Shown here: piece by piece, positions 1 through 20,140 of the stretch
How positions within the stretch are numbered: position 1 is the stretch's first letter
Layout of the letters: each line of letters begins with the position of its first letter
IMG/VR virus record: IMGVR_UViG_3300033146_000850
Location: 32,001 to 96,000 of that record
Strand: one strand, 5' to 3'
DNA from: a virus
DNA: 64,000 nucleotides
The notes under the pieces: generated by a model
The model's database searches: none
Seen by the model: the letters and a program-made list of their open reading frames with translations, nothing else
Told to the model about the DNA's origin: nothing
Program-made: the position numbers and the translations under genes

Positions 1-1
1 G

Positions 2-1774
2 GCATTATTAGTTAGAGTTATTTTGGATGTTGGTGGAGGGTCAATGGAAGGAATAACTCCATTTGATGCTATAGAAGTTACATATTCAGACTTAACAACC
101 ATTATAGGTAATATGGCTTTAAAAATAGGAAATTATTATAAAATAACAGATTTTAGAACTGTAAATGATGCTGGATTAGGAATGGTTAATACCGCACAAA
201 TTGAAGAAATAATAGTTCAAGCTATTTCTGAAAACGTACTTGACCAACGAGCTTATTCAGCTGAGTTTATGTATGAGATTTTATATTATAATATTAATAA
301 TACTGGTGAATCTACCCACGGGGTCATTACATATAGAGAAAATTTAGAACAAAATATAAAAACAGTGTTTGACTTTCGAGGTTGTCAATTTGCTAGGGTG
401 AAATTAGACCCGTCAAGTCTTGTTAGTTGGAGTTCAGGGACAACATATACAACCTCTGATATTGTATTATATAATGATACATTGTGGAAGCCGATTCATA
501 ACACTGGAAACGTAACAACAGAGGCTCCAGGAACTAATAGATATTGGGTTAAATTATTTGAAGAGGTATCACATAATTATACTTTATTTGAAACTACAAG
601 TGGCTGGGCTAGTAGTTTAACTTTAGATGTTGGGAGTTATAAATTATTCCCAGTATTTGGGCAACCAAATATATCTGGGGAAACTTCGACTTTTAATATT
701 AATCAATTTACAAATATTACTTGTAATTCAAATAATGTTATATTTATGTCAACATCAGGGACACACGATAATATCACGGTGGAAAGATATTGTGATGGTT
801 TAACAATAGCCTCTAAGAATATTAGCAAGGCATATTTTGGGAGTGGGTCTAATAATACATCTACATCATATAGTGGATATATTTACAACGGTATTTTTAG
901 TGATGGGATTAAAAATAGCTCTATTGATAAGATAGATGGTGTTAATATTAGAAAAGCTAGAAATTCAGTATTAGGGTCAGTATTTTCATCTGACCTTGAT
1001 GATATAAATACCTGTTATCTACAAAATATAAATAGATGTCAGTTTGGAGCATTTACTAGACAATTTTATGGAGGGGATATCTCTAATACAATAGTAGGAA
1101 TTGAATCATATAACAATGAAGTTGTATATTCTAGCTACAATACATTTGGAATGCGTTTTGAAAATAATAAAATCGAGACTGTTGAATTTAGAAATAATGT
1201 TATGGGGAATTATTTTAGGAGATTTATAATTCCTGAAACGATATCCTTTTTTAGTAATACTTTTGGTAATGAGGTAGGACATCATAGTATTGATTTTATT
1301 GTTAATTCACACTGGTATAGAAATAAGTTTGGAGATATGTGTTTTAGTCATGGTGGTTCATCAATAGGTGGTATGTGCACATACGTAACGGTGGGAAGCA
1401 ATCTTTACAATTTAAATGTAGGTGGTGATTTCCAAAACTCTAGTTTTGGTTCTGGTTGTAGAGATATTAATGTTACAAATGGGATAAATGGTGTTAATAT
1501 TGGAAGTAGTTGTGGACTCTTCAATTTAGGTGGACATTTTAGTCGATGTAATATTGCAGATGGTTGTTTAAATATTACAGTGCCAAGTGGGGTAAATCTA
1601 AATATGGTTGATTTTGGTGTTGGGTCAACTAATATAGATTTCACAGGAGCAACATCATCTTCACACATTGCTCAAAGTTACAATAAAGAGATTATAACTA
1701 GGGTTGATACATCCAAAGTTCTAAGATATACCGATAACTTAAACACTTTAATTTATGATTCAATTATAGGATAA
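2..1774 (+). CDS. Fibre/virion structural protein with CBM5/12-like module and beta-helix-like repeats (5'-partial)
   Basis: The frame is open back to the window edge (ALLVRVILDVGGGS...), so the true start lies upstream. Contains a WSSGTTYTTSDIVLYNDTLWKP module and C-terminal N/G/F-rich repeats (NTFG, NKFG, SSFG, CNIA) typical of beta-solenoid fibres. Confidence 0.6.
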   Translation, partial: ALLVRVILDVGGGSMEGITPFDAIEVTYSDLTTIIGNMALKIGNYYKITDFRTVNDAGLGMVNTAQIEEIIVQAISENVLDQRAYSAEFMYEILYYNINNTGESTHGVITYRENLEQNIKTVFDFRGCQFARVKLDPSSLVSWSSGTTYTTSDIVLYNDTLWKPIHNTGNVTTEAPGTNRYWVKLFEEVSHNYTLFETTSGWASSLTLDVGSYKLFPVFGQPNISGETSTFNINQFTNITCNSNNVIFMSTSGTHDNITVERYCDGLTIASKNISKAYFGSGSNNTSTSYSGYIYNGIFSDGIKNSSIDKIDGVNIRKARNSVLGSVFSSDLDDINTCYLQNINRCQFGAFTRQFYGGDISNTIVGIESYNNEVVYSSYNTFGMRFENNKIETVEFRNNVMGNYFRRFIIPETISFFSNTFGNEVGHHSIDFIVNSHWYRNKFGDMCFSHGGSSIGGMCTYVTVGSNLYNLNVGGDFQNSSFGSGCRDINVTNGINGVNIGSSCGLFNLGGHFSRCNIADGCLNITVPSGVNLNMVDFGVGSTNIDFTGATSSSHIAQSYNKEIITRVDTSKVLRYTDNLNTLIYDSIIG

Positions 1775-1778
1775 TAAT

Positions 1779-2285
1779 ATGAAAATTAAAAATCAGATAA
1801 AACCATTACATAATTTACCACCGATACAATATCAAATATTACCTAGTATTATTAGTAGGGATTCAATACCTAATAGTGTTAGACATCTAGGTATGATTTG
1901 TTATGTAATCAGTGAAAATACAACTTATAGATTAGTTGGGGGGTTGACCAACTCTGATTGGGAGGAAGTTAAAACAGGTGGTGGAGGATATACTACTACA
2001 TTTGTTGATTCTGATTTGACAAGTGGATATATTGTATTTGAACATAATCTAAATGCGGAGAATAGTGTATGTAATGTTACTATTAGAAATAATATAAATA
2101 GACATATTATACCGGATGATATTATAGAGGTTGATTCTAACCATATAAGGGTTGATTTATCTATGATGCAACCCTTAATTGGTGAGTGGGCTGTTATAAT
2201 TAACTGTGTTGAATATGATGATATAGTAGTTAATAAAGAGCGATTAATAAATAGTTTTATAATAAATGATAATAATTTAGGTTAA
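1779..2285 (+). CDS. Small virion structural/fibre-associated protein
   Basis: RDSIPNSVRHLGMICYVISENTTYRLVGGLTNSDWEEV and HNLN-type motifs seen in phage fibre proteins; lies in the fibre cluster. Confidence 0.55.
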   Translation: MKIKNQIKPLHNLPPIQYQILPSIISRDSIPNSVRHLGMICYVISENTTYRLVGGLTNSDWEEVKTGGGGYTTTFVDSDLTSGYIVFEHNLNAENSVCNVTIRNNINRHIIPDDIIEVDSNHIRVDLSMMQPLIGEWAVIINCVEYDDIVVNKERLINSFIINDNNLG

Positions 2286-2297
2286 GGAGAATTTAAT

Positions 2298-3848
2298 ATG
2301 TCTATTGTTTTACAAAATAAATCAAAATCGAGGTTAGCTGTTGATATCAATAGTTCGGCAATGTCTTTGACCGTTGATAGTGGAACAGGTGATAATTTTG
2401 CAACTTGTGATTCGGAATCACATATGTGGATTACTATAATTGACCAGACAACATATGGTGGTGAGTCTGAAATACTAGAAATTGTAAAAGTTTCACCTAG
2501 AAGTGGAGACACTTTTACAATAGTTGAACGTGGTGCAGAGGGAACCACTGCTAGAGCCTTTGTTATTGGGGACATTGTAGAGCAAAGAATTACAGCACAA
2601 ACATTATTTGATTTGGGTGTATCAACAAATAAAAATCGAAAGTATGTAGATGAAATATATATTACTTTGAAACGACATGAGGAATTTTCAAATTCATTTG
2701 AAATGGAAAGATTTAATGATAAATATGCACCTCAACTAATTAGTAATTGGGATTCATATTGGGGTTCACGTTTAAAAGTTCAAGTTGAGGATATTACCAC
2801 ACACGTGATATATGATAATTTGAGTTTTGACACCACTGATGATATGTATAATTGGGGTTCGGCACATTGTACTCTTGATGCATTGTCTACATATAATGAG
2901 ACATTGATTGCTAGACCTTACGAGGTTATTGATTCATCTATTCCAACACCTAGTAAAATATATGGATTGAATAGATTTTATTCCTCCATCAAAGGTAGAA
3001 AAAATTATAATAATAATTTGATATGCACTGCTAATAATTCAAATCTGTTATCCGCTTGTACTACTATTTTTAATTCAGTATGGGGTACTAGTTTAACTGA
3101 TATGGATATGGATATTCATAGCATATGGTTAGGCAGACCTAAAAAAAATAAATATTCTAACCCACCATTTTTAAAAGATGGTCAATATGTTGTAAATTTT
3201 GATACGGCTAATGCCCCAACAAGACGTGAATATAATATTAATGATGGTGTTTTTTATGATAACTCGTTTGACCAATATAGTAATGTTAGTAGCACCGTTA
3301 GATATGCTTTTATTGAAACTGGTAATTATAATGTTAATATTACTGGGGTTGATGAATGGACTAGTATCAATTCTAGTATCAAGGATAGTGGTTCATCATA
3401 TATAATAGCTTGTGGTGTTCAAAATAATAATGCAAATGAACGAAAAGCAGTTGTGATTAAACCATTAGGAATAGACCAGGTTGTAATGATGATGCCAGAC
3501 TTTGAAATATATGATTTTGAGATTGTATTTTATAATAATGATATGCAAAATCATATATATGTAAAATCTTTTACCGATGATACAGATTTTATAGATACAT
3601 TTATTGATATTGACGGTGGTAAAATGTTAATGAATAGCTCCGAGTGGTTATCTGTAGATATTAATAGTCAGACTTATGTTTCACATAATTCTACTGGATA
3701 TAATGATTTACCTTGGTCAACTGTTAGGTTTAGGTTGAGGAATAAAATTACTAAAGAAATTTCAGAATTAAGTGAATCAGGTATAGTAACGGAGAAAAAA
3801 CATAACCTAAAACAATTACAAATGAAAATAAAATCTTTTAATTCCTAA
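2298..3848 (+). CDS. Fibre-like protein A: tail-fibre N-terminal module plus unknown ~400-aa domain (paralog of 8080-9483)
   Basis: RBS AAGGAG. The N-terminus (SLTVDSGTG...EIVKV..RSGDTFTIVERGAEGTTARAF...EQRITA) matches a common phage tail-fibre attachment module. The C-terminal domain shares KIYGxN..S.IKG, KP(L/V)GxD and FYNxD motifs with 8080-9483. Confidence 0.65.
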   Translation: MSIVLQNKSKSRLAVDINSSAMSLTVDSGTGDNFATCDSESHMWITIIDQTTYGGESEILEIVKVSPRSGDTFTIVERGAEGTTARAFVIGDIVEQRITAQTLFDLGVSTNKNRKYVDEIYITLKRHEEFSNSFEMERFNDKYAPQLISNWDSYWGSRLKVQVEDITTHVIYDNLSFDTTDDMYNWGSAHCTLDALSTYNETLIARPYEVIDSSIPTPSKIYGLNRFYSSIKGRKNYNNNLICTANNSNLLSACTTIFNSVWGTSLTDMDMDIHSIWLGRPKKNKYSNPPFLKDGQYVVNFDTANAPTRREYNINDGVFYDNSFDQYSNVSSTVRYAFIETGNYNVNITGVDEWTSINSSIKDSGSSYIIACGVQNNNANERKAVVIKPLGIDQVVMMMPDFEIYDFEIVFYNNDMQNHIYVKSFTDDTDFIDTFIDIDGGKMLMNSSEWLSVDINSQTYVSHNSTGYNDLPWSTVRFRLRNKITKEISELSESGIVTEKKHNLKQLQMKIKSFNS

Positions 3849-3856
3849 ATTAAAAT

Positions 3857-3864
3857 AATAAATA
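3857..3864 (+). promoter_or_regulatory. Putative T4-late-type promoter (AATAAATA) for the repeat RNA
   Basis: ATAAATA ends 4 nt before the closing stem that starts at 3869; the same motif precedes many structural genes. Chance matches are likely in such AT-rich DNA. Confidence 0.45.
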
Positions 3865-3868
3865 TAAT

Positions 3869-3999
3869 AAAATAATGAATGGGAATGTTTAAAATACCCT
3901 TGTTCAGTAAAGAGGTCCGATTAAAATCCCTTTGTTCAGTAAGGTGGTCCGTTTAAAATCCCCTTGTTCAGTAAGGTGTTATTTTCCATTCATTATTTT
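3869..3999 (+). ncRNA. Putative structured ncRNA 1: three 32-nt repeats closed by a long stem (three-way junction)
   Basis: Repeats start at 3889, 3921 and 3953 (TTAAAATMCCYTTGTTCAGTAARGWG...). A perfect 14-bp inverted repeat 3869-3882/3986-3999 encloses them. Inter-repeat helices show an A-U to G-C compensatory change, and G-U pairs favour the + strand. The 32-nt period is not codon-compatible. Confidence 0.7.
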
Positions 4000-4014
4000 T
4001 CTTTAAATATAAAT

Positions 4015-4022
4015 CATAAATA
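4015..4022 (+). promoter_or_regulatory. Putative late promoter CATAAATA for the 4054 gene
   Basis: T4 late-promoter-like octamer ~30 nt upstream of the ATG, downstream of the repeat element. Confidence 0.5.
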
Positions 4023-4053
4023 TAATTAAAAGATATAAAACTTAGAGGGTATT

Positions 4054-6603
4054 ATGGGTAAACATTCTAGTGTTGATATTTATAAAAGTAATAATTCATT
4101 TGCACCTGAATCCGATTTTATAAGGATTAAAGGTGGTAGAGATAATAAAATATATTTCATTTTGGATAATGGGGATGAATATTTCATAAGTAGTCCGTGG
4201 GAGTTACCTGTGATATCTCAAACGGTAATTGACCCGTCAACGATAACCCCTGTAATAAATGACAAATATATAATACCTATAAACGCAACAGGCGATTGGG
4301 TAGGTCAGGATTCAAATATTGCTAATTGGAATGGTACTGTTTGGGAATTTATCACACCCGAAAAAAGTTGGGTGACGTATATTCAAGATACTAATTTATT
4401 AGCTGGATTTGATGGTAATGAATGGAAATTAATGTCCGTTCCAACTGATGAGATGACATTAGAGGTTTTGAATGATGAGATTACAATATTAGGTATTGAT
4501 ACTATTATAAACAGTAACGGTGTGAGTTTAGACCCCTCACACACACCAATGTCAAACCCAGATGCCGAATTAGTGACAAGAGGTTTTGTTGATTCTATCT
4601 CTACATCTGTTGATTATGCAACTATTGATTTAATACCAGCATTACCTAAAATGGGTGTTTGTAATTCAGAGAGAGATTTATATCATGAGGCTTGGAACCC
4701 TAAAATATTCACTAATATGACTGGGGTTGGTATGCACGATGACCCATTAAACGGTGTTGTATATATTCCTAAAAATATGACTACTTTATTGTATTGCTAT
4801 ACCTCTCCACCATCTCCTGTGCCAGCGGTTGATAATACACCAATATTAGACCCTGGAACATATCGGTTATATTCAAATATAGATTTAGTTCCATATGGTT
4901 TGAATATGACCGAGAATGTGTTATATTCAGGAGCAAGAAGTATAAATTTCACATCTAGATTTGAACAAGGAAGATGGCTACACGAGGCAGTTGTACCGTG
5001 GTCTGATTTTAGACTAAGTAGAGTATTAGTTAATACAGGACATCCAATGTTCTTTTATCAATTAATTTTATACGATGGATACCCTGGGACAAATACTGAT
5101 ATAACTATTACTGGAATTGATAGGATAATTAATGCTGATAAATGGAGTGTTGATGGGTTTATAACTAAAGCTATTCCTGAAAATGCCAATAATGAACTTG
5201 CTACTAGAAAATATATCGACAATACTAAAAACAATCCTGACAATATAACATTAGAGGTTAATACTGATAATAATATAATATGTTCTAATGAAAATGATAT
5301 ACAACTTGTATTAAATGATGCTTATGGACACAATATAGCCACTCACGGGTATCATTGGGTAACAACTACACCTGGGGTACCTACTCTTACAAATGGCACC
5401 TTAGAACTAAATTTACCAGATGATGGAAGTGGATTTTGTCAAGCATATCAGGGACAGGTGTTTATTGGTGATTCTAATAATGCTGGTATAAACGAGGAAA
5501 CTTGGAATGCATATGTTCATACAAATATGGATGTTAGAATTGATGGTATAAATTTTTGGTTATATACTAATAATTATGAGTTGGAGGTTGATGAAGTAAT
5601 TGAACTTAGTGATGGTAGTTTTTTACTTAGGTCAATGGTTCCAAAAGGAGAGTATAAGGAAATACTTGGATGTTGGGCAAGAATTGAAAGTAGCACCGTT
5701 AATATTACTAATCAACCGTGGTATCGTTTTGTTGATTGTAACCACTACCCTCCAAAGCAAATTATAAAGGTTAAAGAAATTGACCTTATAATTGACGATG
5801 ACGATGAATCGATTGATGGTTCAGATACACCAATGTCAGATGCTCATCATGAGCTTGTCACTAGAGCAAAAGTCGAAAGTCTTGTAAATAATAATACACA
5901 CTGGAACAAATCTGGCACAGAATTAAATCCGTCTGATGCTTTAGTGGATGTAATAAATCTGGAAATGACCCAGAATGGGTATACACAGATAAAAATTCGT
6001 AATAATAATGACACTGGAAATGGAGCAGGAGCTTTATTGGAGCTGAAAGGTTCTGGAGCAGATTATACAAATAATGCTTACTTCGGAATTTATAGTCCAG
6101 CCTTCTGGCTTTCACAATTAGCTGGAAAAGCCGTATTAATGTCAGATAGAGATGTTGTAATTGGAACAGTTGACTCAACAGGAGATATTAACTTTCTTAT
6201 TGGAAATTCTTACAGCTCACCAGTTGTAGTTGGACATCTAAATCAAGACGGATTCCATTTAGATGCACTTCAAACAACATCTGTGCATCCAGCAAGCTAT
6301 TATAACCTTTTTGTTGATGCAAGTACTGGTTTAATATATGCCAGTAACACAGGAGCAACTGGTAATACTCCAGCCACGGAAACTTTCACAATAGATGCTA
6401 CTATTGTTACAAATGGATATATAGACCTTTCAAACGCACCTAATCCAGACAATCATAATAGTGTTAACTGGAATGGTACGATATTATTTGAAGGAGCTAC
6501 CGAAGATTATACAATTACAGGAAATAGAGTGACTTTTCATACTAGTAATGGTGGAGTAGAACTCATTACTGGAATGAAAATACAAATTAAATATAAATAT
6601 TAG
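4054..6603 (+). CDS. Fibre/decoration protein with DUF2793-like domain and three internal repeats
   Basis: DUF2793-like segment (DKYIIPINATGDWVGQDSNIANWNGTVWEFITP). Three IDxII...EL(V/A)TR repeats separate modules. C-terminal beta-rich domain (NG...DYTITGNRVTF...IKY). Confidence 0.6.
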   Translation: MGKHSSVDIYKSNNSFAPESDFIRIKGGRDNKIYFILDNGDEYFISSPWELPVISQTVIDPSTITPVINDKYIIPINATGDWVGQDSNIANWNGTVWEFITPEKSWVTYIQDTNLLAGFDGNEWKLMSVPTDEMTLEVLNDEITILGIDTIINSNGVSLDPSHTPMSNPDAELVTRGFVDSISTSVDYATIDLIPALPKMGVCNSERDLYHEAWNPKIFTNMTGVGMHDDPLNGVVYIPKNMTTLLYCYTSPPSPVPAVDNTPILDPGTYRLYSNIDLVPYGLNMTENVLYSGARSINFTSRFEQGRWLHEAVVPWSDFRLSRVLVNTGHPMFFYQLILYDGYPGTNTDITITGIDRIINADKWSVDGFITKAIPENANNELATRKYIDNTKNNPDNITLEVNTDNNIICSNENDIQLVLNDAYGHNIATHGYHWVTTTPGVPTLTNGTLELNLPDDGSGFCQAYQGQVFIGDSNNAGINEETWNAYVHTNMDVRIDGINFWLYTNNYELEVDEVIELSDGSFLLRSMVPKGEYKEILGCWARIESSTVNITNQPWYRFVDCNHYPPKQIIKVKEIDLIIDDDDESIDGSDTPMSDAHHELVTRAKVESLVNNNTHWNKSGTELNPSDALVDVINLEMTQNGYTQIKIRNNNDTGNGAGALLELKGSGADYTNNAYFGIYSPAFWLSQLAGKAVLMSDRDVVIGTVDSTGDINFLIGNSYSSPVVVGHLNQDGFHLDALQTTSVHPASYYNLFVDASTGLIYASNTGATGNTPATETFTIDATIVTNGYIDLSNAPNPDNHNSVNWNGTILFEGATEDYTITGNRVTFHTSNGGVELITGMKIQIKYKY

Positions 6604-6606
6604 AGG

Positions 6607-6840
6607 TTGTTAGTTATTATGATTATTGATACAGATGAGCGAGAAATTAAAATTAAAGATTTGAGTTTAGCAGCATTTATAAGGATGAAAAATAATATAC
6701 TTATAGATGTTAGGGATGGTTTTTTTATATTCCATTCTAAATTAACAGAGCGAGAGTGGAAAATAGAATTTTTAAAAAGTGAGAGTAGTAAGTTTGATAG
6801 GGAGGTTAGAGATTTAAGATGGTGTATAAAAAATAATTAA
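6607..6840 (+). CDS. Small hypothetical protein, DUF5659-like
   Basis: IKDLSLAAFIRMK...FFIF motif; true start probably the ATG at 6619. Confidence 0.45.
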   Translation: MLVIMIIDTDEREIKIKDLSLAAFIRMKNNILIDVRDGFFIFHSKLTEREWKIEFLKSESSKFDREVRDLRWCIKNN

Positions 6841-6851
6841 AGGAGGTCAAA

Positions 6852-8024
6852 ATGGCTTTATTAAGAGGTTCTTCACAAATTTTAGATTTAAGTATCCCGA
6901 TTGGTAAACTAGAATCTGATTTTTTAAATGGTGTAAATTGGGACATTACAGACGGAAACAACAATGCTACTATTACAGGGCTACAAGCAGGAACTAGTGC
7001 TAATGATGCTGTGAATTATCAACAGCTTATGGATTTAATTAACGGTCAGAGAGTCAGAGAAGTAAGAGTTTTCGCAACATCTAACGTTACTCTAAATGGT
7101 GCACACACGGAAGACGGCATAGCACTTAATACTGGAGACAGAATTGCGTGTTTTAATCAGACTACTTCTACCGAGGACGGTATTTATGTCGTTGACACAA
7201 CAGGAGCTTGGGCAAGAGCTACTAATTTTGATACTAATTTTGAAGCAAGAAGTTGTAAAATTCTTGTTTCAGAAGGAACTGCAAGGGAAAACACTCAATG
7301 GTTTATTACTAATGACAAAGGAAACGATGTTGTAGGAACAGCTGATTTAGTAGCTGTACAAACTGGTAGTTCAGGAATGATGACTGCTGATAATGGTTTA
7401 ACAATGACTGGAAGCAATATTCAGTTAGGTGGAGCATTAAATCAGAATACTACCATCACGACTGCGACTAATTCCTTTACTTTTTCTGGTACAGGGGTAG
7501 GCGGTACTTTTAATGTTCATGCAAATGATGCTGTAACCATTTGGGGAAACCAGGCTCAAATTATATTCAACAATCATTTAGATTTAGATGCCAATTTGAC
7601 TATCCGTTTTAATGACGATGAAATTAAATCATCATCAGTTCTGAGTGCAATTCCATTTTCAATGACAGCAACGACTGATTATGGTAATGGTAATGGTACA
7701 TCAGCAGGAGATGTTATTGACCAATTCAGAGCCGATTTTACAGATGATGCTATTGTTAATGCTTTAGTTGAGCTTAAAGCTATAGTTGATAATCCAGAAG
7801 TGATAATAGAGGAAAGTATTACTGTAGCCAACGGAACATCAATCACTCTTACAAATGGAACTACTACATCTGTAATTAAAGATGTATTTCTTAATGGTAA
7901 TAGACTTGTTCCAACAACCGAATTTACAGTCGGAGATAATGGAACATACAGAACAATCACAGAAGTAATCGCAAATCAGGATTTTACAGATGGCGATGTT
8001 GTTACAGTTAAGTATGTAGCTTAA
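6852..8024 (+). CDS. Fibre/head-decoration structural protein
   Basis: RBS AAGGAGG. DAVNYQQL followed by VRVFATSNVTLNG..DGIALNTGDRI...NQT...DGIYVV..GAWARATNFD, a widespread phage fibre domain. Confidence 0.65.
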   Translation: MALLRGSSQILDLSIPIGKLESDFLNGVNWDITDGNNNATITGLQAGTSANDAVNYQQLMDLINGQRVREVRVFATSNVTLNGAHTEDGIALNTGDRIACFNQTTSTEDGIYVVDTTGAWARATNFDTNFEARSCKILVSEGTARENTQWFITNDKGNDVVGTADLVAVQTGSSGMMTADNGLTMTGSNIQLGGALNQNTTITTATNSFTFSGTGVGGTFNVHANDAVTIWGNQAQIIFNNHLDLDANLTIRFNDDEIKSSSVLSAIPFSMTATTDYGNGNGTSAGDVIDQFRADFTDDAIVNALVELKAIVDNPEVIIEESITVANGTSITLTNGTTTSVIKDVFLNGNRLVPTTEFTVGDNGTYRTITEVIANQDFTDGDVVTVKYVA

Positions 8025-8038
8025 TGTTTAATAGGTTT

Positions 8039-8064
8039 AGCTCCTACCTAAAAGGAGCTTTTTT
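8039..8064 (+). terminator. Rho-independent terminator
   Basis: AGCTCCT-acctaaa-AGGAGCT followed by a T run, just after the 6852-8024 stop. Confidence 0.8.
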
Positions 8065-8079
8065 ATATAGGAGGATATA

Positions 8080-9483
8080 GTGGGACAAATAAGAAATTCA
8101 CAAATTATAAATAATGACCTAACAGGGGCTAGTATCAATAGAAACTTTAGGTTTTTTGATGAAAGAGAAATACCTATCAGTGCAGGTGAAATTAGATTTT
8201 GGCAAGGTGTGTTCTGGAGGGTTATATCAGATATAACTATAACTGAAACTGGAGGCTCAATTCCTAAAGAGGGTGATATGACATATTCCCCTGATTCTCA
8301 ACCTATTTATTGGCAAAAAATACCTAATTATGGGGTTGATAGGATTGTTTTTGAAAGTATGGATATACCTGGATATAATATAACAACTAACATCTTGAAT
8401 GGTGATTGTATTCAACCAATGGCTAGTAGAATGCATAATAATTGGGAAGTATATGGTGAAAATTTATTATTTGATGTTACTGATGAAGGTGGTAATTCGT
8501 GGTATGGTTTAACTTTTCCAACTATTACAGATTATATCACGTGGCATAATAGTCAAACATTTATATCTATGGTTCACGTTGAAATATATGGGTTGTTAAA
8601 TAGTAAAAAAAATAATTATCATAAGATTTATGGTAGAAATGAGGGTTTATCTATAATTAAGGGGTGTGATATTAACGGTAGAAGTAATTATCATAAAAAT
8701 ATATGTTTATTTCAATCGAATTGGGATGAAAGAAGCACATTTGCAATGGATATATTAAATAGATTAACAGGAACAACACCATCCAGTTCGACCGATGCCC
8801 AAAGATGCATACATTCACCAGGAAATCAATCAATTTATACATTATACCAAACACTAAACACACCTAATACTATACATTTTAATGGTGGATTAAATTCAAA
8901 TAAAAGATGTTATAATCCATCAACTTTAGGGTTTAACTCTATTAATTCGGGGGATGTTTTTCTACCAATGCTTGGTGGTAATGGATTTTATGCTATTACA
9001 CAAAATACAGGTGGGTGGTCATTTATAGGTGTTCAAAATCTTGTTGATAATAGATATATTGACAGTGTAAGTCTTGTTAAAGTATATGGATTTCAAAGAA
9101 ATGACGGTTGTGTTATTGCTATAGTTAAACCAGTAGGTCAAGATTCATGGAGAATATCTTGGAAAGAACCTGTAAATAATAAAAAAATAATAATAGGATT
9201 TTATAATAGGGATGATAAAATGATATTAAAAGATGTTACATCTTTAGTTGATTCGTTTTCCAATGGTGGAACATCATTTTTAATACCTAAAAGTGTATTG
9301 AGTGCTGGTAATAAATCATCAACTAATTATAATTTATCAAAAATGACCGTTAGGAATATGGAAATTTTTATATCTGATGGTGATGGATTTATTTCAAAAG
9401 TACCACATTCTATAGATTGGATATTGAAAGCAAATGGTGCAAAGGCATATTTATTACTCAATAATAATCATTCATATAATTAA
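8080..9483 (+). CDS. Fibre-like protein B: N-terminal docking/CBM-like module plus unknown ~380-aa domain (paralog of 2298-3848)
   Basis: RBS GGAGG and GTG start. N-terminus GQIRNSQI resembles ALLRGSSQI of 6852; CBM-like GEIRFWQGVFWRV...YWQKI. C-terminal motifs are collinear with 2298-3848. Confidence 0.6.
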   Translation: MGQIRNSQIINNDLTGASINRNFRFFDEREIPISAGEIRFWQGVFWRVISDITITETGGSIPKEGDMTYSPDSQPIYWQKIPNYGVDRIVFESMDIPGYNITTNILNGDCIQPMASRMHNNWEVYGENLLFDVTDEGGNSWYGLTFPTITDYITWHNSQTFISMVHVEIYGLLNSKKNNYHKIYGRNEGLSIIKGCDINGRSNYHKNICLFQSNWDERSTFAMDILNRLTGTTPSSSTDAQRCIHSPGNQSIYTLYQTLNTPNTIHFNGGLNSNKRCYNPSTLGFNSINSGDVFLPMLGGNGFYAITQNTGGWSFIGVQNLVDNRYIDSVSLVKVYGFQRNDGCVIAIVKPVGQDSWRISWKEPVNNKKIIIGFYNRDDKMILKDVTSLVDSFSNGGTSFLIPKSVLSAGNKSSTNYNLSKMTVRNMEIFISDGDGFISKVPHSIDWILKANGAKAYLLLNNNHSYN

Positions 9484-9486
9484 AAA

Positions 9487-9494
9487 CATAAATA
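9487..9494 (+). promoter_or_regulatory. Putative late promoter CATAAATA for repeat RNA 2
   Basis: Lies 3 nt after the stop of 8080-9483 and 6 nt before the first repeat. Confidence 0.5.
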
Positions 9495-9496
9495 AT

Positions 9497-9600
9497 ATTG
9501 ATTAGGGTTGTAATACTAAGATACCCTAACTATAAAGGTATGATACTAAAAAACCTTAACTAAAAGGATTTAATACTAAAAAATCCTAACTAATTTTTAT
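9497..9600 (+). ncRNA. Putative structured ncRNA 2: three 30-nt hairpin repeats with conserved ATACTAA loop
   Basis: Exact 30-nt period (9501, 9531, 9561). The stems differ but each pairs perfectly (TTAGGGT/ACCCTAA, AAGGT/ACCTT, AGGATTT/AAATCCT), with invariant ATACTAA and TAAC. U-rich tail. Confidence 0.7.
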
Positions 9601-9627
9601 TTAAATATTAAAAGGGGGTGACCACAT

Positions 9628-11658
9628 ATGATAACGTATAAACTTTGGAGTGAGGTTGACGCTGTAACATCAGGTGATATTGTAGTATATGGTAATGAAT
9701 TATGGGAGGCTACTTCTAATATTTCACCTGCTTATTATGGAGATAAAAGTAATACTCCAACATTCAGTCCAAATTGGAAAAAATCAAATAATACTCAATA
9801 TATTAATGTAAAATATATTAATCATTTTATAGAAGTTAAAATTGACACATCTGTTGATGATGTTACATTCATATTACCTGACCCATCTCTTAATAATAGA
9901 AAAGATATACACGTAGCTTTAAATACATCTGGCAATACATTGACAATTGAGACAAATACACCAACTGTCAAGATTAATAATAGTATAACTAGTATGGATT
10001 TTAATGTATCCGCTGATAGTATAGTACTTCATCCATCTAGTGATATAAATTATCAAATACGCTCGGAGGTTGCCGATAAACCACCTTTAGTTTTTTGTTG
10101 TAGACCAGGGTCAACGCAATCTTTTACAACTACATTAACCAATATTAATTATGATACAATATTATTAGATAAAGGTTCATTTGCTCATCTATCATCTGGG
10201 GAAATATATTTCGATATAGGTGGTATTTATAATATATCTGTATCATATGGTGGAAGAGTTACAAATAATAGTAGAACAGAGGTTAATGGATATTTACAAA
10301 TAAATAAAGGTAGTGGTTTTGTAAATGTTCCTGATTTACAACTTAATGCGTATCATAGACATATTAGTCAAGGTGCTGATGGTGACAGTCAAACAATATC
10401 ATTAGAAATAGAAGCTGGTGATATTATTCGTGTTCAAGTTGTTGGTGATGGTGGTTCTATTGAGACTATCCCTGCTAGTTGTACTATAAATATCACGGTA
10501 TCTAAAGGGTTGCGAGGTGAAAAAGGGGAAAAAGGTGAGCAAGGTTTTGATGGAGCAGATGGTGACATTACCTGGGAAGGTGGTTGGACAGCTGGAACAT
10601 ATCAAGAAAATATGGCAGTTGAATATAATGGGTCATCTTTTGTTTGTATTCAAAATGGAACGAATATTAATCCTGGCACACCAGACACCCCAAATTCTGG
10701 GTGGGAATTGCTTGCAAAAAAGGGGTCTGATGGTTCAGGGGCTACCATTAACGTATCCGAAGATGGAACTATGGCTACCAATACCCCACACGGAACTCTT
10801 AATTTCAAAAAAGGAGTTATTATTAGTGATGCTGGCGGAGGCGTTGCTGATATAAATATAGTGAATGTTCAACCTTATATTGGTAATAATGATGATGTTT
10901 TATTATTTATAAATGTAACTGGGGATATTTTTATCGCTGGGGATAATTTTGATAATAATATGTCTGTTGATTTAGGAAGTGATGTTACTGTAAATTATAT
11001 TGAGGCGTTGACACCAAATAATTTAAAAATTAACTATACTACAAGTTCAAGCATTCAATCCGCTGTTAATATTGAATTTACAAGAAACGGTATTCCATCA
11101 TTTGGTCACACTATTACTTGTACGGTCACTGATGTTATAATTGGAAATGGTGTTGCTGGAACGTGGGTTGAAAATTTCAACACATCATCCTGGAGTACAC
11201 CAAGATGGAATGTTGTAGAAGGTAGTAGTTTAACTAATTTTTTCCATACAGGAGTATCTACACCATCAGGTAATACTGGAGCAACTAGTGCATATGATGG
11301 TAATTTCTTATACGGTGAGAGGTCTAACCCTAATAATGGAGTTGGTAGCTCATACAATGCATATGCAGAAACTTCTGATTTTCATGATTTGACACAAGTT
11401 AGCTTTATGCTTCATAAATGGTCAAGTACACCATCAAATATGGGTGACCTAGTAATATATTCACAAAATTCTAATAACACGTGGACGGAAAGATGGAGAC
11501 ATACTGGAAATGAACAGACAGCACAAGGTGACGCTTTTGTTCAAATTACTCTTAATGCAATTCCCTGGGATTGTAAAGGAATTAGAATAATGTTCGAGGC
11601 GGTTTCTAGTTATATGTCTGATATTTGTATCGATGATGTCGAAATTATTTCAATTTAA
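9628..11658 (+). CDS. Collagen-containing multi-domain fibre protein (CBM-like, C1q-like, GXY, MAM-like C-terminus)
   Basis: GLRGEKGEKGEQGFDGADG collagen triplets; two WxxxTY/GDIV.Y.G-type modules; C-terminal TPSGNTGATSAYDGNFLYGE...SDICIDDV resembles a MAM domain. Confidence 0.65.
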   Translation: MITYKLWSEVDAVTSGDIVVYGNELWEATSNISPAYYGDKSNTPTFSPNWKKSNNTQYINVKYINHFIEVKIDTSVDDVTFILPDPSLNNRKDIHVALNTSGNTLTIETNTPTVKINNSITSMDFNVSADSIVLHPSSDINYQIRSEVADKPPLVFCCRPGSTQSFTTTLTNINYDTILLDKGSFAHLSSGEIYFDIGGIYNISVSYGGRVTNNSRTEVNGYLQINKGSGFVNVPDLQLNAYHRHISQGADGDSQTISLEIEAGDIIRVQVVGDGGSIETIPASCTINITVSKGLRGEKGEKGEQGFDGADGDITWEGGWTAGTYQENMAVEYNGSSFVCIQNGTNINPGTPDTPNSGWELLAKKGSDGSGATINVSEDGTMATNTPHGTLNFKKGVIISDAGGGVADINIVNVQPYIGNNDDVLLFINVTGDIFIAGDNFDNNMSVDLGSDVTVNYIEALTPNNLKINYTTSSSIQSAVNIEFTRNGIPSFGHTITCTVTDVIIGNGVAGTWVENFNTSSWSTPRWNVVEGSSLTNFFHTGVSTPSGNTGATSAYDGNFLYGERSNPNNGVGSSYNAYAETSDFHDLTQVSFMLHKWSSTPSNMGDLVIYSQNSNNTWTERWRHTGNEQTAQGDAFVQITLNAIPWDCKGIRIMFEAVSSYMSDICIDDVEIISI

Positions 11659-11660
11659 AC

Positions 11661-11689
11661 TTGACAAATCATAAATTATAATGTAATAT
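11661..11689 (+). promoter_or_regulatory. Sigma70-type (early) promoter
   Basis: TTGACA-17 nt-TAATAT upstream of the radical SAM gene. Confidence 0.6.
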
Positions 11690-11722
11690 GTTTTTGTTGT
11701 TATTTATTTTAGAGGTTTAATT

Positions 11723-12706
11723 ATGAAGTTAGAAAATATTGGATTCTATAGTTTATATGATGAACGTGTTAAAAATGTTAGTCCAAAATCTCAAATGAAA
11801 AGATGTGAAATGATTATTACTGAATATTGTAATTTCAAATGTCCATATTGTAGAGGTTTGGATAATGGGATATATGGTGATAGGAAAAAGAAAGAATTAT
11901 CTTTTGATGAAATTAAAAGAAATATTGATTTGTGGTGTTTAAATGAACCTCTTGAAAATATTAGATTTTCAGGTGGTGAGCCAACTTTACATTCAGACAT
12001 AGTCAACATTGTTAAATATGCTAAATCTAAAAAAATTAAAAGAATAGCAATATCAACTAATGGGTCTAATAACATTGATTTATATAAAGAACTTATTGAT
12101 GCTGGTGTTAATGATTTTTCTATATCTTTGGATGCTAATTGTTCATCAGATGGCGATATGCTGGCTGGTTACATTGAGGGTTCTTGGAATATAGTTGTTG
12201 AAAATATTAAAATATTATCAAAATTGACATATGTAACGGTTGGTGTGGTGTTATCACCTGATAATATATCCAACACTGTATCAACCATTAATTTTGCACA
12301 CGACTTAGGAGTTGATGATATTAGAATTATATCATCCGCACAATGGAATAAACCTATTCCTGGATTAAAAAAGGTTAGTAAAGAGGTTCGGGATGCTCAT
12401 CCAATCTTAAATTATAGAATAGAACATTTTGCAAATGGTAGAAATGTTAGAGGAATAAAAGCAACTGATTCTAATAAATGTTCATTGGTTTTAGATGATA
12501 GTGTTATTGCTGGTGATTATCATTTTCCTTGTGTAATATATATGAGAGAGAAGGGTGCTCCTATTGGTAAAATAAATACTAATATGAGAAATGATAGAGT
12601 TAAATGGTTTGAAACCCATAACACTTATTTAGATGATATTTGTAGAAATAATTGTTTAGACGTTTGTATAGACTATAATAACAAATATAATTGTTATAAA
12701 CATTAA
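11723..12706 (+). CDS. Radical SAM enzyme with Cys-rich (SPASM/twitch-like) C-terminus
   Basis: CNFKCPYC (CxxxCxxC), FSGGEPTL and ISTNG motifs; C-terminal C...FPC...CRNNCLDVC. Confidence 0.9.
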   Translation: MKLENIGFYSLYDERVKNVSPKSQMKRCEMIITEYCNFKCPYCRGLDNGIYGDRKKKELSFDEIKRNIDLWCLNEPLENIRFSGGEPTLHSDIVNIVKYAKSKKIKRIAISTNGSNNIDLYKELIDAGVNDFSISLDANCSSDGDMLAGYIEGSWNIVVENIKILSKLTYVTVGVVLSPDNISNTVSTINFAHDLGVDDIRIISSAQWNKPIPGLKKVSKEVRDAHPILNYRIEHFANGRNVRGIKATDSNKCSLVLDDSVIAGDYHFPCVIYMREKGAPIGKINTNMRNDRVKWFETHNTYLDDICRNNCLDVCIDYNNKYNCYKH

Positions 12707-13174
12707 TTAATCAGTGATAATAATATCACATAGAGAATCCATTGTTTTTTGATTTATAGTTTCAGGAAAATTTTCAATTTTTATCTTGTAAATATCAATA
12801 TCAACCTCTTCTTCCATAAAATTAGAATACTCTGTCGATTCCTGTTCATATTTTTCAATTACATTTTTATATCTTTCTTTTAATTCTTCAAAATCAGAGT
12901 TTAATTGTTCCATATCTTTAATTTTAGGGGTTTGGGTTTGCACATTCTCCCAATCAATACTCCCATCTTCATTTTTAACTGCATTTTTAACAAGCATTTC
13001 AACTCTTTCTTTTTCATAAGCCTCATCTATTTTTGGTTTATGCTCTTCAACCATTTTAAGCTCTTCTAGTATTATCTTCTTATTTCTAGATATTGCATAT
13101 GCAAATTTCACTGGATACACACCTGTTAATCCATTAAGTGTCGAATAAATGTTAGCTAAATCATTTCTGTTCAT
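12707..13174 (-). CDS. Hypothetical helical protein
   Basis: 155-aa ORF with GAGG RBS; coiled-coil-like. Confidence 0.6.
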   Translation of the reverse strand: MNRNDLANIYSTLNGLTGVYPVKFAYAISRNKKIILEELKMVEEHKPKIDEAYEKERVEMLVKNAVKNEDGSIDWENVQTQTPKIKDMEQLNSDFEELKERYKNVIEKYEQESTEYSNFMEEEVDIDIYKIKIENFPETINQKTMDSLCDIIITD

Positions 13175-15651: not shown

Positions 15652-17277
15652 ATGTCAAAAACTATTTTATTAGGTGATGAGGGGAAAACAAAGATTATGA
15701 ACGGTGTTAACACGTTAGCTAATGCTGTAAAAATAACACTAGGACCGAGTGGGCGTAATGTTATCATTGGTAGAGGTTATGGTGGGGCACACGTAACAAA
15801 GGATGGGGTAACGGTAGCTACAAATATTGAATTAGAGGATACTGTAGAGAATGAAGGTGCTAAATTTATTAGAGAAGTAGCATCTAGAACTAATGATGTT
15901 GCTGGTGATGGAACAACAACAGCCACAGTTTTAGCACAGAGCATACTTAGTAATGGATATTCTCTTTCTCGTGATAAAAATTATAATTATATTGGTATTA
16001 AAAGAGGTATAGACTTCGCTATTGATACGGTTATCTCAAAAATAAATAAAATGGCTAGAAAAATCGAAACATCTAAAGAAATTGAAAATATTGGAACAAT
16101 ATCTGCAAATAATGATAGAGAAATTGGTAAAATTTTAGCAGATGCAATGGATGAGGTTGGTAGAGATGGTGTTATAACCATAGAAAGTGGAACTGGTATG
16201 GACACATCATTAGAAATAGTTGAGGGTATGCAATTTGATAGAGGATATGTGTCACCATATTTCTCAACAAATGAAGATTTGAGTTGTACATTAGAGAATC
16301 CATATATACTAATATATGATAAACCTATTAGTAATTTGAAAGATATCGTTCCAATTCTTGATATTATCATTAAAGAGAGTCGTCCATTATTAATAATATC
16401 TGATGGTGTTACTGCGGATGCATTGCAAGGTCTCATTATTAATAAAATGAATAATATTTTAAAGGTATGTGCAGTCAATGCCCCTGAATTTGGGAAAGCA
16501 AAGTATGATGCACTTCAAGATATTTCTATCTTGACTGGTGGAACATTCATATCAGATGAATTAGGTATTAAATTACCAAATGTGAATATTGATATGTTGG
16601 GAAAAGCCAAGAAAGTTGTTGTCACTGCAAATAATACTATGATTATTGATGGATTAGGCTCGGATGATGAAATCGAGAAACGAGCTAGAAATATAAAAAC
16701 ACTTATTGATAATACTAATATAGATAGTGAAAAAGAACAACACCAAAGAAGATTAGCTAAACTTATTGGTGGTGTTGCAATTGTTAAAATTGGAGCAACA
16801 ACTGAAACAGAAATGAAAGAAAAGAAGGATAGAGCAATTGATGCTCTAAACGCCACAAAATCAGCCGTAGAAGAAGGAATCGTAGCTGGGGGTGGCGTAG
16901 CATTAGTTAAGGCACAAAAGAGCTTAGAAGCGATTATTGACAACAATAAAGATTTAGATGATTCTGAATTATTGGGAGTGTCTATTGTTAAAATGGCGAT
17001 AGAGTCACCTTTCAATCAAATTTTAAGTAATTTAGGATATTCTAGTGAAAAAATATCAGATATTAAGAGATATATTGATTCGACCCATATTAATTATGGA
17101 TACGATGCAAAAAATGAAAAATTTGTTGATATGATTGAGAGCGGAATAATTGACCCAGCTAAAGTAACTAAAAATGCGTTAAAAAATGCGGGGTCTATTG
17201 CTGGTACAGTATTAACAACGGAAGTTGTAATAGTTGAAAATTTAGAACCTGGTGTAGATATGCATTTACCAAAATAA
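15652..17277 (+). CDS. groEL: Chaperonin GroEL
   Basis: TLGPSGRNV, VTKDGVTVA, AGDGTTTATVLA, GMQFDRGY, EEGIVAGGG and IIDPAKV motifs. Confidence 0.98.
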   Translation: MSKTILLGDEGKTKIMNGVNTLANAVKITLGPSGRNVIIGRGYGGAHVTKDGVTVATNIELEDTVENEGAKFIREVASRTNDVAGDGTTTATVLAQSILSNGYSLSRDKNYNYIGIKRGIDFAIDTVISKINKMARKIETSKEIENIGTISANNDREIGKILADAMDEVGRDGVITIESGTGMDTSLEIVEGMQFDRGYVSPYFSTNEDLSCTLENPYILIYDKPISNLKDIVPILDIIIKESRPLLIISDGVTADALQGLIINKMNNILKVCAVNAPEFGKAKYDALQDISILTGGTFISDELGIKLPNVNIDMLGKAKKVVVTANNTMIIDGLGSDDEIEKRARNIKTLIDNTNIDSEKEQHQRRLAKLIGGVAIVKIGATTETEMKEKKDRAIDALNATKSAVEEGIVAGGGVALVKAQKSLEAIIDNNKDLDDSELLGVSIVKMAIESPFNQILSNLGYSSEKISDIKRYIDSTHINYGYDAKNEKFVDMIESGIIDPAKVTKNALKNAGSIAGTVLTTEVVIVENLEPGVDMHLPK

Positions 17278-19078: not shown

Positions 19079-20140
19079 ATGAATCCAATAGAAATATATA
19101 ACGAATTATGTGAACACGTTGTGGAGCAGGATATTGCAAAAAAGAAATTATCAGTATCCATATATAACCATTATAAAAGAATAAATCATGTAGACCAAAC
19201 GGATGATGTCGTCATTAAAAAATCTAATATTCTATTATTAGGTAAAACAGGAACTGGGAAAACTCTATTAGCTGAAACATTAGCAAATATATTAGATATC
19301 CCTTTTACAATAGCTAATGCTGTTGAATTTTCTGAAAGCGGATATGTTGGTTCTGATGTTGATGATATAATTAGAGGGTTGATTCACAGTGCACAAGGCG
19401 ATATTGAACTTGCACAATATGGAATAGTATATATTGATGAAGTTGATAAAATAGCATCTTTAGGGTCTAATTTTTCAACTGGTGCGGATGTTGGTCACGA
19501 GGGTGTTCAACAAGCACTATTAAAAATGGTAGAGGGTACGGACATAAATGTTCAAATAGTTGGTGGACGAAAAAACCCATCAAACCAAACCTTACATTTT
19601 AATACTAATAAGGTTTTATTTATTGCTGGAGGTGCGTTTGTTGGGATAGAAGATATTATTACTAAACGGATTAATGGTAAATCTAATGGTAATATTATTG
19701 GTTTTGGTGATACTGGTGGTAATAGTTCATCTGATGAAAATAATGAAATATATAATGAAGTTATTAGTGATGATATAATAGAATATGGTTTAATTCCTGA
19801 GTTTGTAGGTAGATTTCCAGTAGTTGCACCATTACACGAGTTAAGTGATTCATCAATGTTAAAAATTTTAACAGAACCTAAAAATTCTTTAATAAAACAA
19901 TATCAAAAACTTTTTAAATTAGATAACGTCAAATTATCTTTTACAAAAAAAGGATTAGAAGCAATTGTTAAAAAAACAAAAAATGAAAATTTAGGGGCAA
20001 GAGGTCTTCGTAAAATATTAGAGGATGTTATGCTAGATATTATGTTTAATTATCCATCTAGTAATATTAAATCAATTAAGATAACAGAAAATGTTGTAAA
20101 TAATGGGTTTGATTTAAAAATATTTAAAAAATCAGCATAA
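19079..20140 (+). CDS. clpX: ATP-dependent Clp protease ATPase subunit ClpX (no N-terminal Zn-binding domain)
   Basis: KSNILLLGKTGTGKT, GYVG pore loop, YIDEVDKI, GVQQALLK, IGF loop, PEFVGRFP and GARGLR. Confidence 0.95.
   Translation: MNPIEIYNELCEHVVEQDIAKKKLSVSIYNHYKRINHVDQTDDVVIKKSNILLLGKTGTGKTLLAETLANILDIPFTIANAVEFSESGYVGSDVDDIIRGLIHSAQGDIELAQYGIVYIDEVDKIASLGSNFSTGADVGHEGVQQALLKMVEGTDINVQIVGGRKNPSNQTLHFNTNKVLFIAGGAFVGIEDIITKRINGKSNGNIIGFGDTGGNSSSDENNEIYNEVISDDIIEYGLIPEFVGRFPVVAPLHELSDSSMLKILTEPKNSLIKQYQKLFKLDNVKLSFTKKGLEAIVKKTKNENLGARGLRKILEDVMLDIMFNYPSSNIKSIKITENVVNNGFDLKIFKKSA

Follow-up and report, generated by a model that had tools for sequence, protein, structure and literature searches.

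The window analysed here (bases 32001-96000, 64,000 nucleotides (nt), of a 126,063-base IMG/VR virus record, G000) carries, within a 205-base gap that separates two same-strand (+) genes, an element (E1) of three tandem repeats enclosed by a closing stem. On balance, E1 probably belongs to a conserved and hitherto undescribed family of folded elements, most probably RNAs, that would act as a late trivalent platform for a symmetric partner. As judged from sequence, the E1 family is encoded directly behind a fibre/spike-like virion gene (gene A) of uncultured, AT-rich T4-like myoviruses, and we rate the element as a new class of structured element, unusual in design.

A three-repeat element and its pairing register

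Gene A has 13 full-length homologues with 33-44% identity among 127 matches, and a search for related loci from an alignment of its homologues (A2) gave nine (two in viral, six in metagenome and one in genome contigs), of which eight have readable DNA after the stop codon; searches from either flanking protein singly found no loci. All six loci of the full-length type (L002, L004, L005, L006, L008 and L010) hold a closing stem and exactly three 33-nt units, and the elements begin 0-48 nt past the gene stop codon. The spacing of the loop motif is exactly 33 nt in these six loci and 32 nt in E1. According to reading of the sequences and RNAfold, the closing stem is unrelated in sequence from phage to phage, and almost the sole sequence common between phages is GWUUAAARU on the 3' side of each loop, from which L005 departs by having GAUUGCAGU instead. 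In L002 (5042-5330; 154-nt period) the element occurs twice in tandem and in L010 (5056-5490; 156-nt period) three times, always complete and with its flanks, the unit of duplication being the whole element and not the number of repeats. Behind the gene in L007, a distant homologue (23% identity), stand three complete hairpins that are GC-rich and have CUUAAAAUC as their loops. A DNA search together with the covariance model R1 described below placed the element at one site, in one copy, in the 126-kb record, and in two adjacent copies in a complete 167.7-kb relative (G001).

An earlier note on this DNA had described E1 as three 32-nt repeats inside a perfect closing stem, with variable positions pairing between neighbouring repeats to give a pseudo-three-fold symmetric three-way junction, and its account of the sequence proved accurate. 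The direct repeats lie at 3889-3920, 3921-3952 and 3953-3984 (100, 84 and 75% identity to copy 1; TRF period 32, 2.9 copies, score 149), the 14 pairs of the closing stem (3869-3882/3986-3999) are all Watson-Crick, the strands of P2, P3 and inner P1 match the sequence exactly as claimed (Table 1), and the compensatory trio A3911-U3931, G3943-C3963 and C3899-G3975 is present, as are the UCA linkers, the single bulges and the two 12-nt loops, UCCGAUUAAAAU and UCCGUUUAAAAU. The copies of the loop motif stand at 3887, 3919 and 3951. The strands said to form tandem G-U/U-G pairs at the bases of the arms also read as claimed, but the homologues have no counterpart of these tandem pairs.

A tandem repeat of the form X-loop-X' can pair either within a unit or between neighbours, and it is the variable positions that decide. 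Duplex energies were calculated for all 3 x 3 combinations of half-units, and the six possible assignments of 5' to 3' halves were compared in a permutation test. The cyclic assignment (1-2, 2-3, 3-1) was uniquely the best of the six in E1, in both copies of L002 (L002a and L002b) and in L010, and was tied best in L004, L005 and L006; L008 was uninformative because its repeats are identical. The units of L010 are alike at 46-62% of positions outside the motif, and its stems (UCAAC/GUUGA, UGGUGU/ACACCA and CGGAU/GUCCG) are mutually unlike, each of them being complementary in the cyclic register only. Between the L002 copies, one pair in P3 has changed from U.G to C-G.

Both registers were then scored on a gapless alignment of seven rows from six phages with E1 left out (A5, which replaces A3/A4, where unit 3 had been gapped). 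For the junction, 87.4% of 119 cells were paired and 13 of the 17 pairs were changed on both sides (covariation score 0.874; slid controls 34-48%), compared with 72.3% of 119 cells and 12 of 17 pairs for the intra-repeat alternative (covariation score 0.507; slid controls 34-42%), and the score was reached in none of 500 shuffles in either case. E1 itself was recovered at 3887-3978 (53.2 bits, E 1.5e-8) by the covariance model R1, in whose construction from A5 it had no part, and the search of G000 and G001 with this model gave no further convincing copy beyond the known places. The junction is the minimum free energy (MFE) structure by RNAfold in L002a, L002b and L006, and in L010 the MFE structure comprises the closing stem, P2 and P3. 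The comparative data, that is, the permutation test, the pair counts and the folds of the relatives, thus favour the inter-repeat pseudo-three-fold junction that the earlier note had proposed, and a cyclic three-way junction is supported as the predicted fold of E1. All arms follow one design: two pairs close a 12-nt loop (NNNGWUUAAARU), the helix has 3-6 bp, the 5' strand often carries a single bulged base, and junction strands of 3-10 nt join the arms. In arm 1 the loop is not shut but leads on into the closing stem, so that the molecule amounts to three equal hairpins in circular permutation.

Folding of E1 by itself gave an MFE of −28.6 kcal/mol (z = −2.8; 1 of 200 shuffles folds as well), in a structure that follows the junction only in part. 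The closing stem reaches 17 pairs in this fold (3869-3885/3983-3999), with pair probabilities of ~0.9-1.0 and 0.52 for the outermost pair. When the 17-bp stem and the core pairs were enforced, the refined junction came to −26.5 kcal/mol, 2.1 above the MFE. The energetics of E1 alone are therefore lukewarm, and on the E1 sequence by itself the junction reading would stay open.

Regarding known families, neither a tRNA nor an Rfam family was found in E1: Rfam 15 at gathering thresholds gave no match in the window and none in the eight homologous loci, and in E-value mode 3800-4060 returned only chance-level matches (mir-1545, 12.4 bits; trypanosomatid mitochondrial LSU rRNA, 10.9 bits). Neither blastn (distant setting) of 3000-5000 against the phage collection nor a two-core DNA pattern against viral contigs gave a match. 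A coding tandem repeat was ruled out by stops in all six frames of E1 and L010, with no frame open across all elements, and an intrinsic terminator was likewise rejected, E1 being absent from the six terminator-like sites found in 1-13000. A loose motif scan of viral contigs returned at least 117 stretches, nearly all of them unrelated AT-rich tandem repeats; L047, which passed the energy filter, reads as a coding repeat. A stricter scan returned seven, of which L032 is the L002 record, L075 was taken as the L008 phage and five are unrelated repeats. An unrelated but conserved 3 x 32-nt repeat, with units beginning YTTTAAAGTTTTTCTCTAACT, occurs in at least eight IMG/VR contigs (L011, L030, L045, L082, L087, L094, L098 and L120).

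Gene neighbourhood, transcription context and the sister element

The record has ~28% G+C and an estimated completeness of 56% by CheckV, and its T4-type portal (PF07230, 7e-137), together with a baseplate protein resembling gp6, places the phage among the T4-like myoviruses. Residues 1-115 of the gene A product match phrog_8469 and phrog_6427, both tail-fibre families, while a Pfam search of the product gave no family. In its AlphaFold2 model (pLDDT 84.6), residues 3-121 form an N-terminal tailspike/fibre anchor domain that matches 8jov_1 (Z 14.5), and the C-terminal part of ~400 amino acids (aa) is beta-rich, with FN3/Ig-like matches only (Z ~5.5) in structure comparison. A tblastn search of protein A against cultured phages showed only the N-terminal 106 residues, the anchor domain, to be common to both. 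In L002, L004, L005 and L010 the order is a gene with the shared N-terminal domain, gene A, the element and a DUF2793 fibre gene, and the short L006 locus also holds a fragment matching the downstream DUF2793 gene. Further downstream in the window, a full-length Cpn60/GroEL-type chaperonin (4.5e-69) and an AAA_2/ClpB-like ATPase are encoded at 15652-17277 and 19079-20140.

Table 1. Coordinates of E1, its sister element E2 and the surrounding features, numbered from the first base of the window
Feature	Position	Strand	Remarks
Gene A, fibre/spike-like virion gene, 516 aa	2298..3848	+	Directly upstream of E1
AATAAATA, match to the NATAAATA late-promoter motif of T4-like phages	3857..3864	+	Ends 4 nt before the closing stem; putative function
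Closing stem, 5' arm	3869..3885	+	Pairs with 3983-3999; 14 perfect pairs, extends to 17
First loop-motif copy, GUUUAAAAU	3886..3896	+	5' side of the internal loop between closing stem and P1
P1 3'-type strand, CCCUUGU	3897..3903	+	Pairs with 3971-3978; aligns to P1 positions of model R1
Arm P2: GUAAAG(A)GG, 12-nt loop UCCGAUUAAAAU, CCCUUUGU	3907..3935	+	
Arm P3: GUAAGG(U)GG, 12-nt loop UCCGUUUAAAAU, CCCCUUGU	3939..3967	+	Formed in the MFE structure
P1 5'-type strand, GUAAGG(U)G	3971..3978	+	From the truncated third repeat
Closing stem, 3' arm, ending AUUAUUUU, then UCUUU	3983..3999	+	
Second NATAAATA motif, CATAAATA	4015..4022	+	31 nt before the ATG of the next gene
Downstream fibre-like gene, DUF2793, 849 aa	4054..6603	+	Next gene after E1
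Gene B, weak paralogue of gene A	8080..9483	+	BLASTP E 2e-5, 30% identity over 141 aa
NATAAATA copy	9487-9494		Precedes E2
E2, three consecutive hairpins, each followed by UAACUA	9497..9600	+	Stems 9502-9508/9523-9529, 9535-9539/9553-9557, 9565-9569/9583-9587

The element always lies on the strand of the flanking genes; among the four homologues scanned, + strand terminator-like sites follow it in three (L005, L006 and L008) and none does in L004; and a few G-U pairs are present. On these sequence features RNA rather than DNA is plausible for E1. The motif NATAAATA is reported as a late-promoter motif in T4-like cyanophages (PMC2984593), and the late promoter of T4 is described as a TATA box of 8 bp that precedes the start site by roughly one turn of the helix (PMC2988020). 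Of the 127 + strand copies of NATAAATA in the present genome, 29 fall in the intergenic 7.5%, some 19 of the latter have an ATG 28-47 nt after them, and ATAAATAA is enriched 9.5-fold upstream of open reading frames (ORFs). The copy before E1 fits a late RNA that would start at the base of the closing stem, where the earlier note had predicted a 5' end. Another intergenic gap behind a NATAAATA motif (46632, 189 nt) has no notable fold (z −1.1). The 8-mer most enriched upstream of ORFs is ACTAAATA (14-fold), usually 30-40 nt before an ATG (for example, window 36237, 80632 and 83919), and it may represent a second promoter class beside NATAAATA.

Behind gene B stands a different element, E2, with stems GGGU/ACCC, AGGU/ACCU and GGAU/AUCC and UAACUA linkers. 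A gene B homologue, 42% identical, is present in the L010 phage (G002:C31; locus L141), where the counterpart array (2875-2965) has other stems (GUACGU/ACGUAC and GUGUU/AACAC) with the same UAACUAU linkers, starts at the stop codon and is followed by an apparent terminator of a hairpin and a T-run. Since an array of the E2 type stands behind gene B in both of these two phages, each paralogue keeps its own kind of three-hairpin element. The L010 contig itself (63.7 kb; fibre module, triplicated element and B-type gene) is binned in a bacterial metagenome-assembled genome titled Candidatus Neomarinimicrobiota, an assignment that could stem from mis-binning of a phage contig or point towards the host. 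Outside the window, the record holds two arrays of 30-nt tandem repeats (G000:C1:805-1009 and 99141-99308), mutual reverse complements ~98 kb apart, and the 18-nt repeats beside them (116-158 and 99340-99417) look related to them; the 30-nt arrays could reflect an inverted-repeat architecture or an assembly artefact.

Proposed role and competing explanations

In the reading that we favour, the RNA would be a late product, either forming the 3' end of the message from the fibre gene or starting at a NATAAATA late promoter of its own. The ends of the transcript would pair into the closing stem, and each of the three 32-33-nt units would pair with its neighbour, the last with the first, to form a three-way junction of three near-equivalent arms; each arm would end in ~12 unpaired bases carrying GWUUAAARU, the loop of arm 1 being opened by the closing stem. 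Such an RNA would be stable because its ends are paired, and it would form a trivalent platform that offers three identical loops to a partner of matching symmetry. The foremost candidate for that partner is the product, presumably trimeric, of the neighbouring fibre-like gene, which the paralogue-specific linkage makes the most economical choice; this is the least certain step, and we advance it with considerable doubt. The fibre-like protein and the RNA behind its gene might even form a cognate pair, in which the RNA binds the three subunits of the trimer via its three GWUUAAARU loops and serves to template or chaperone assembly, or else acts as a cofactor of the virion appendage in a structural or regulatory capacity, with gene B using E2. 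We regard such a pair as unlikely; if true, a phage receptor-binding protein would for the first time have an RNA cofactor, and a natural RNA would have an internal three-fold symmetry that fits a protein trimer.

Several observations weigh against a structured RNA with this role. Concerning the fold, RNAfold formed the 17-bp closing stem and P3 of E1, but the exact structure of the earlier note came to −16.7 kcal/mol, well above the MFE, with a P2 pair probability of ~0.06, and the nearest-neighbour model favours another fold of E1. In L004, L005 and L008 the MFE structure is other than the junction, and other nestings are possible there because the repeats are near-identical. The intra-repeat alternative also exceeds the shuffles because the repeats resemble each other, and A5 represents only six independent phages, whose kinship can carry the rows past the shuffles even in the absence of structure. 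Concerning strand and transcript, the minus strand of E1 folds well too (−25.5 kcal/mol, z −2.4). The earlier note had argued for RNA from G-U pairs that work only on the + strand; a few such pairs are indeed present, but the discrimination is weak (6 G-U versus 3 A-C of 119 cells). No RNA run containing the stretch was found, though a small share of its words occurs in one DNA run, and we infer the RNA nature of E1 from the features above. As read from the sequences, only some homologues have the promoter-like motif in exact form, its spacing from the stem is variable, and the E2-type array of L141, starting at the stop codon, is left without room for its own promoter; for these reasons co-transcription with the fibre gene is at least as likely. 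Concerning the linkage with gene A, L009, a distant homologue (24% identity), has a tRNA-Leu (2447-2523, anticodon tag) in place of the element and two more tRNAs after it, and the linkage could be plain vertical inheritance of a conserved fibre module. An RNA-binding or nuclease fold was sought in the model of protein A by Foldseek and VIA-align, and only the anchor domain and weak beta-sandwich matches were returned.

The four main rivals rank, in falling order of odds, as a cis-acting element of the 3' untranslated region (3'-UTR), an anti-defence decoy, a self-assembling RNA and a DNA-level site. A purely cis-acting 3'-UTR element, protecting the fibre message from 3' exonucleases or serving as a processing or termination signal without any partner in trans, is unlikely, although the position of the elements speaks for it: they start 0-48 nt after the stop codon and before the terminator-like sites of L005, L006 and L008, the L141 array begins at the stop codon and must therefore be co-transcribed, and a U-rich run follows the closing stem of E1. 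A stabiliser, however, needs neither exactly three arms, nor a loop motif conserved amid turnover of the stems, nor loops and linkers specific to each paralogue; moreover, every copy of the duplicated element in L002 and L010 has flanks of its own, and E1 was not flagged as terminator-like, separate terminators following the element in homologues. Rather unlikely as well is an anti-defence decoy, namely a mimic of a type III antitoxin (ToxI-like, compare the pseudo-ToxI of PhiTE) or a competitive A-rich substrate for an endoribonuclease of the ToxN/AbiQ type. ToxN-type enzymes cut A-rich sites, and the loop motif contains AAAU; the duplication and triplication of whole elements suggest that dose matters. 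ToxI arrays are likewise short non-coding tandem repeats (~32-36 nt, ~2-5 copies, then a terminator) that can be phage-borne, with an A-rich motif here as well, and the ToxIN complex is a three-fold (3:3) assembly, which recalls the three-armed element. Both E1 (32 nt x 2.9) and the six homologous loci (33 nt x 3) fall inside the toxI ranges quoted from PMC3401426 (31-62 nt, 1.9-5.6 copies), where a terminator also comes after the array; PMC3475682 reports a pseudo-ToxI that a phage carries at an intergenic position, and T4-like phages are among the reported toxIN targets. Each ToxI repeat, however, folds alone as a pseudoknot, whereas here the pairing is cyclic between neighbouring repeats inside a closing stem, the count is always fixed at exactly three, and the units within one element may differ strongly; those of L010 differ at about half of their positions, which rules them out as equivalent antitoxin units. 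The place behind gene A is also kept across phages at 33-44% protein identity, and the next gene is the fibre-like DUF2793 gene and not a toxin gene (ToxN, CptN or TenpN) as in a true type III toxin-antitoxin locus, a difference that bears only on such a true locus because a phage mimic would not need the toxin gene. A search of G000 and G001 for PF13958 (ToxN family) gave no match, as was also the case for the control genomes, so that this negative carries little weight.

Self-assembly, in which self-complementary loop cores (UUAA and UUUAAA; UGCA in L005) would kiss and join the molecules into rings, lattices or cages, much like the phi29 pRNA ring with its loop-loop contacts or the symmetric complexes of ROOL and GOLLD, seems improbable. 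The three-armed design with the paired ends out of the way would suit it, phage-associated symmetric homo-oligomeric RNAs are known (bioRxiv 10.1101/2024.12.08.627333; pRNA), and L005, where alone UUAAAAU is not kept, reads UUGCAGU in each of its loops, with a 4-nt palindrome at the same place; but this is one informative variant only, a 4-nt A/U palindrome is often expected in DNA of 28% GC, kissing pairs of A-U only would be weak, and the E2 loops (AUACUAA) are non-palindromic. We give still less credence to a DNA-level element, either a cruciform or hairpin site or three phased protein-binding sites, that would serve in replication, in packaging or in recombination of fibre modules with each other. 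The element does lie at a fibre-gene junction, where modules exchange, its spacing of 33 nt is near three helical turns, both strands can fold with only weak strand discrimination by G-U pairs, and promoter/stem-loop cassettes called PeSLs are described as mediating shuffling in T4-like phages (PMC4122927). On the other hand, covariation that keeps the cyclic pairing of three different stems indicates a folded single strand and not duplex operators, and the + strand fit of the U.G to C-G change between the L002 copies, the constant gene-strand orientation and the restriction to a single locus, unlike the dispersed PeSLs, also count against this reading. Finally, the array could be neutral, a tandem triplication that an inverted repeat surrounds by chance, and tandem repeats are indeed common in this AT-rich genome, yet the same architecture recurs in seven phage contigs with almost no common sequence outside the loop motif, compensatory changes are seen, and R1 finds E1 (E 1.5e-8) without having been built on it; this reading is already contradicted by the comparative sequence data and we consider it very improbable.

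No description of a three-repeat RNA behind fibre genes was found in the literature searched; a catalogue of 8,495 candidate structured RNAs from IMG/VR exists (PMC10690425), whose motifs lie in its supplements and may include E1. If E1 is RNA, it would represent a new class, and one of rare design in which three tandem repeats are joined up as a pseudo-C3 three-way junction, with a linear three-hairpin variant behind a paralogous gene, and these elements would be tied to receptor-binding-type genes of uncultured marine T4-like phages. It would also be a compact target of ~130 nt with natural sequence variants for structure probing and cryo-electron microscopy, and it lets an RNA partner of phage fibres or spikes be tested against an RNA anti-defence decoy, either of which would be a function outside current phage annotation. 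Three-armed natural junctions with equivalent arms are, in addition, relevant to RNA nanotechnology.

Comparison with known systems

PeSLs are single stem-loops that occur in many copies per genome. They are like E1 in being small non-coding motifs, promoter-like and stem-loop, between genes of T4-like myoviruses, and are described as recombination points within hyperplastic regions (PMC4122927); E1 differs as a three-armed structure at a single locus with covarying stems. ROOL and GOLLD are, like E1, phage-associated structured RNAs in which symmetry is central, but they are several hundred nt long and their symmetry, as reported, lies between molecules (bioRxiv 10.1101/2024.12.08.627333), whereas the pseudo-symmetry of E1 would lie within one molecule of ~130 nt, for which multimerisation is a guess. 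As regards a mimic of a CRISPR repeat, the units of the element abut without spacers, and the supported pairing is between units and not within them.

The prohead RNA (pRNA) of the phi29 family is a non-coding RNA of ~120-170 nt, encoded by the phage, in which the 5' and 3' ends pair and exposed loops extend from a core that is a three-way junction. Its secondary structure persists where the sequences have little identity, and its function involves virion proteins in a symmetric assembly. Rfam includes the pRNA family, and E1 was without a match to a pRNA model there. The pRNA is not built of three repeats and its arms are non-equivalent, and it belongs to the packaging motor of small phi29-like podoviruses, in contrast to the fibre module of a T4-like myovirus in which E1 is found. 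What E1 has in common with it is the combination of paired 5' and 3' ends with a three-way junction, a resemblance in structure only; the pRNA is the subject of PMC5066667 and PMC3753930.

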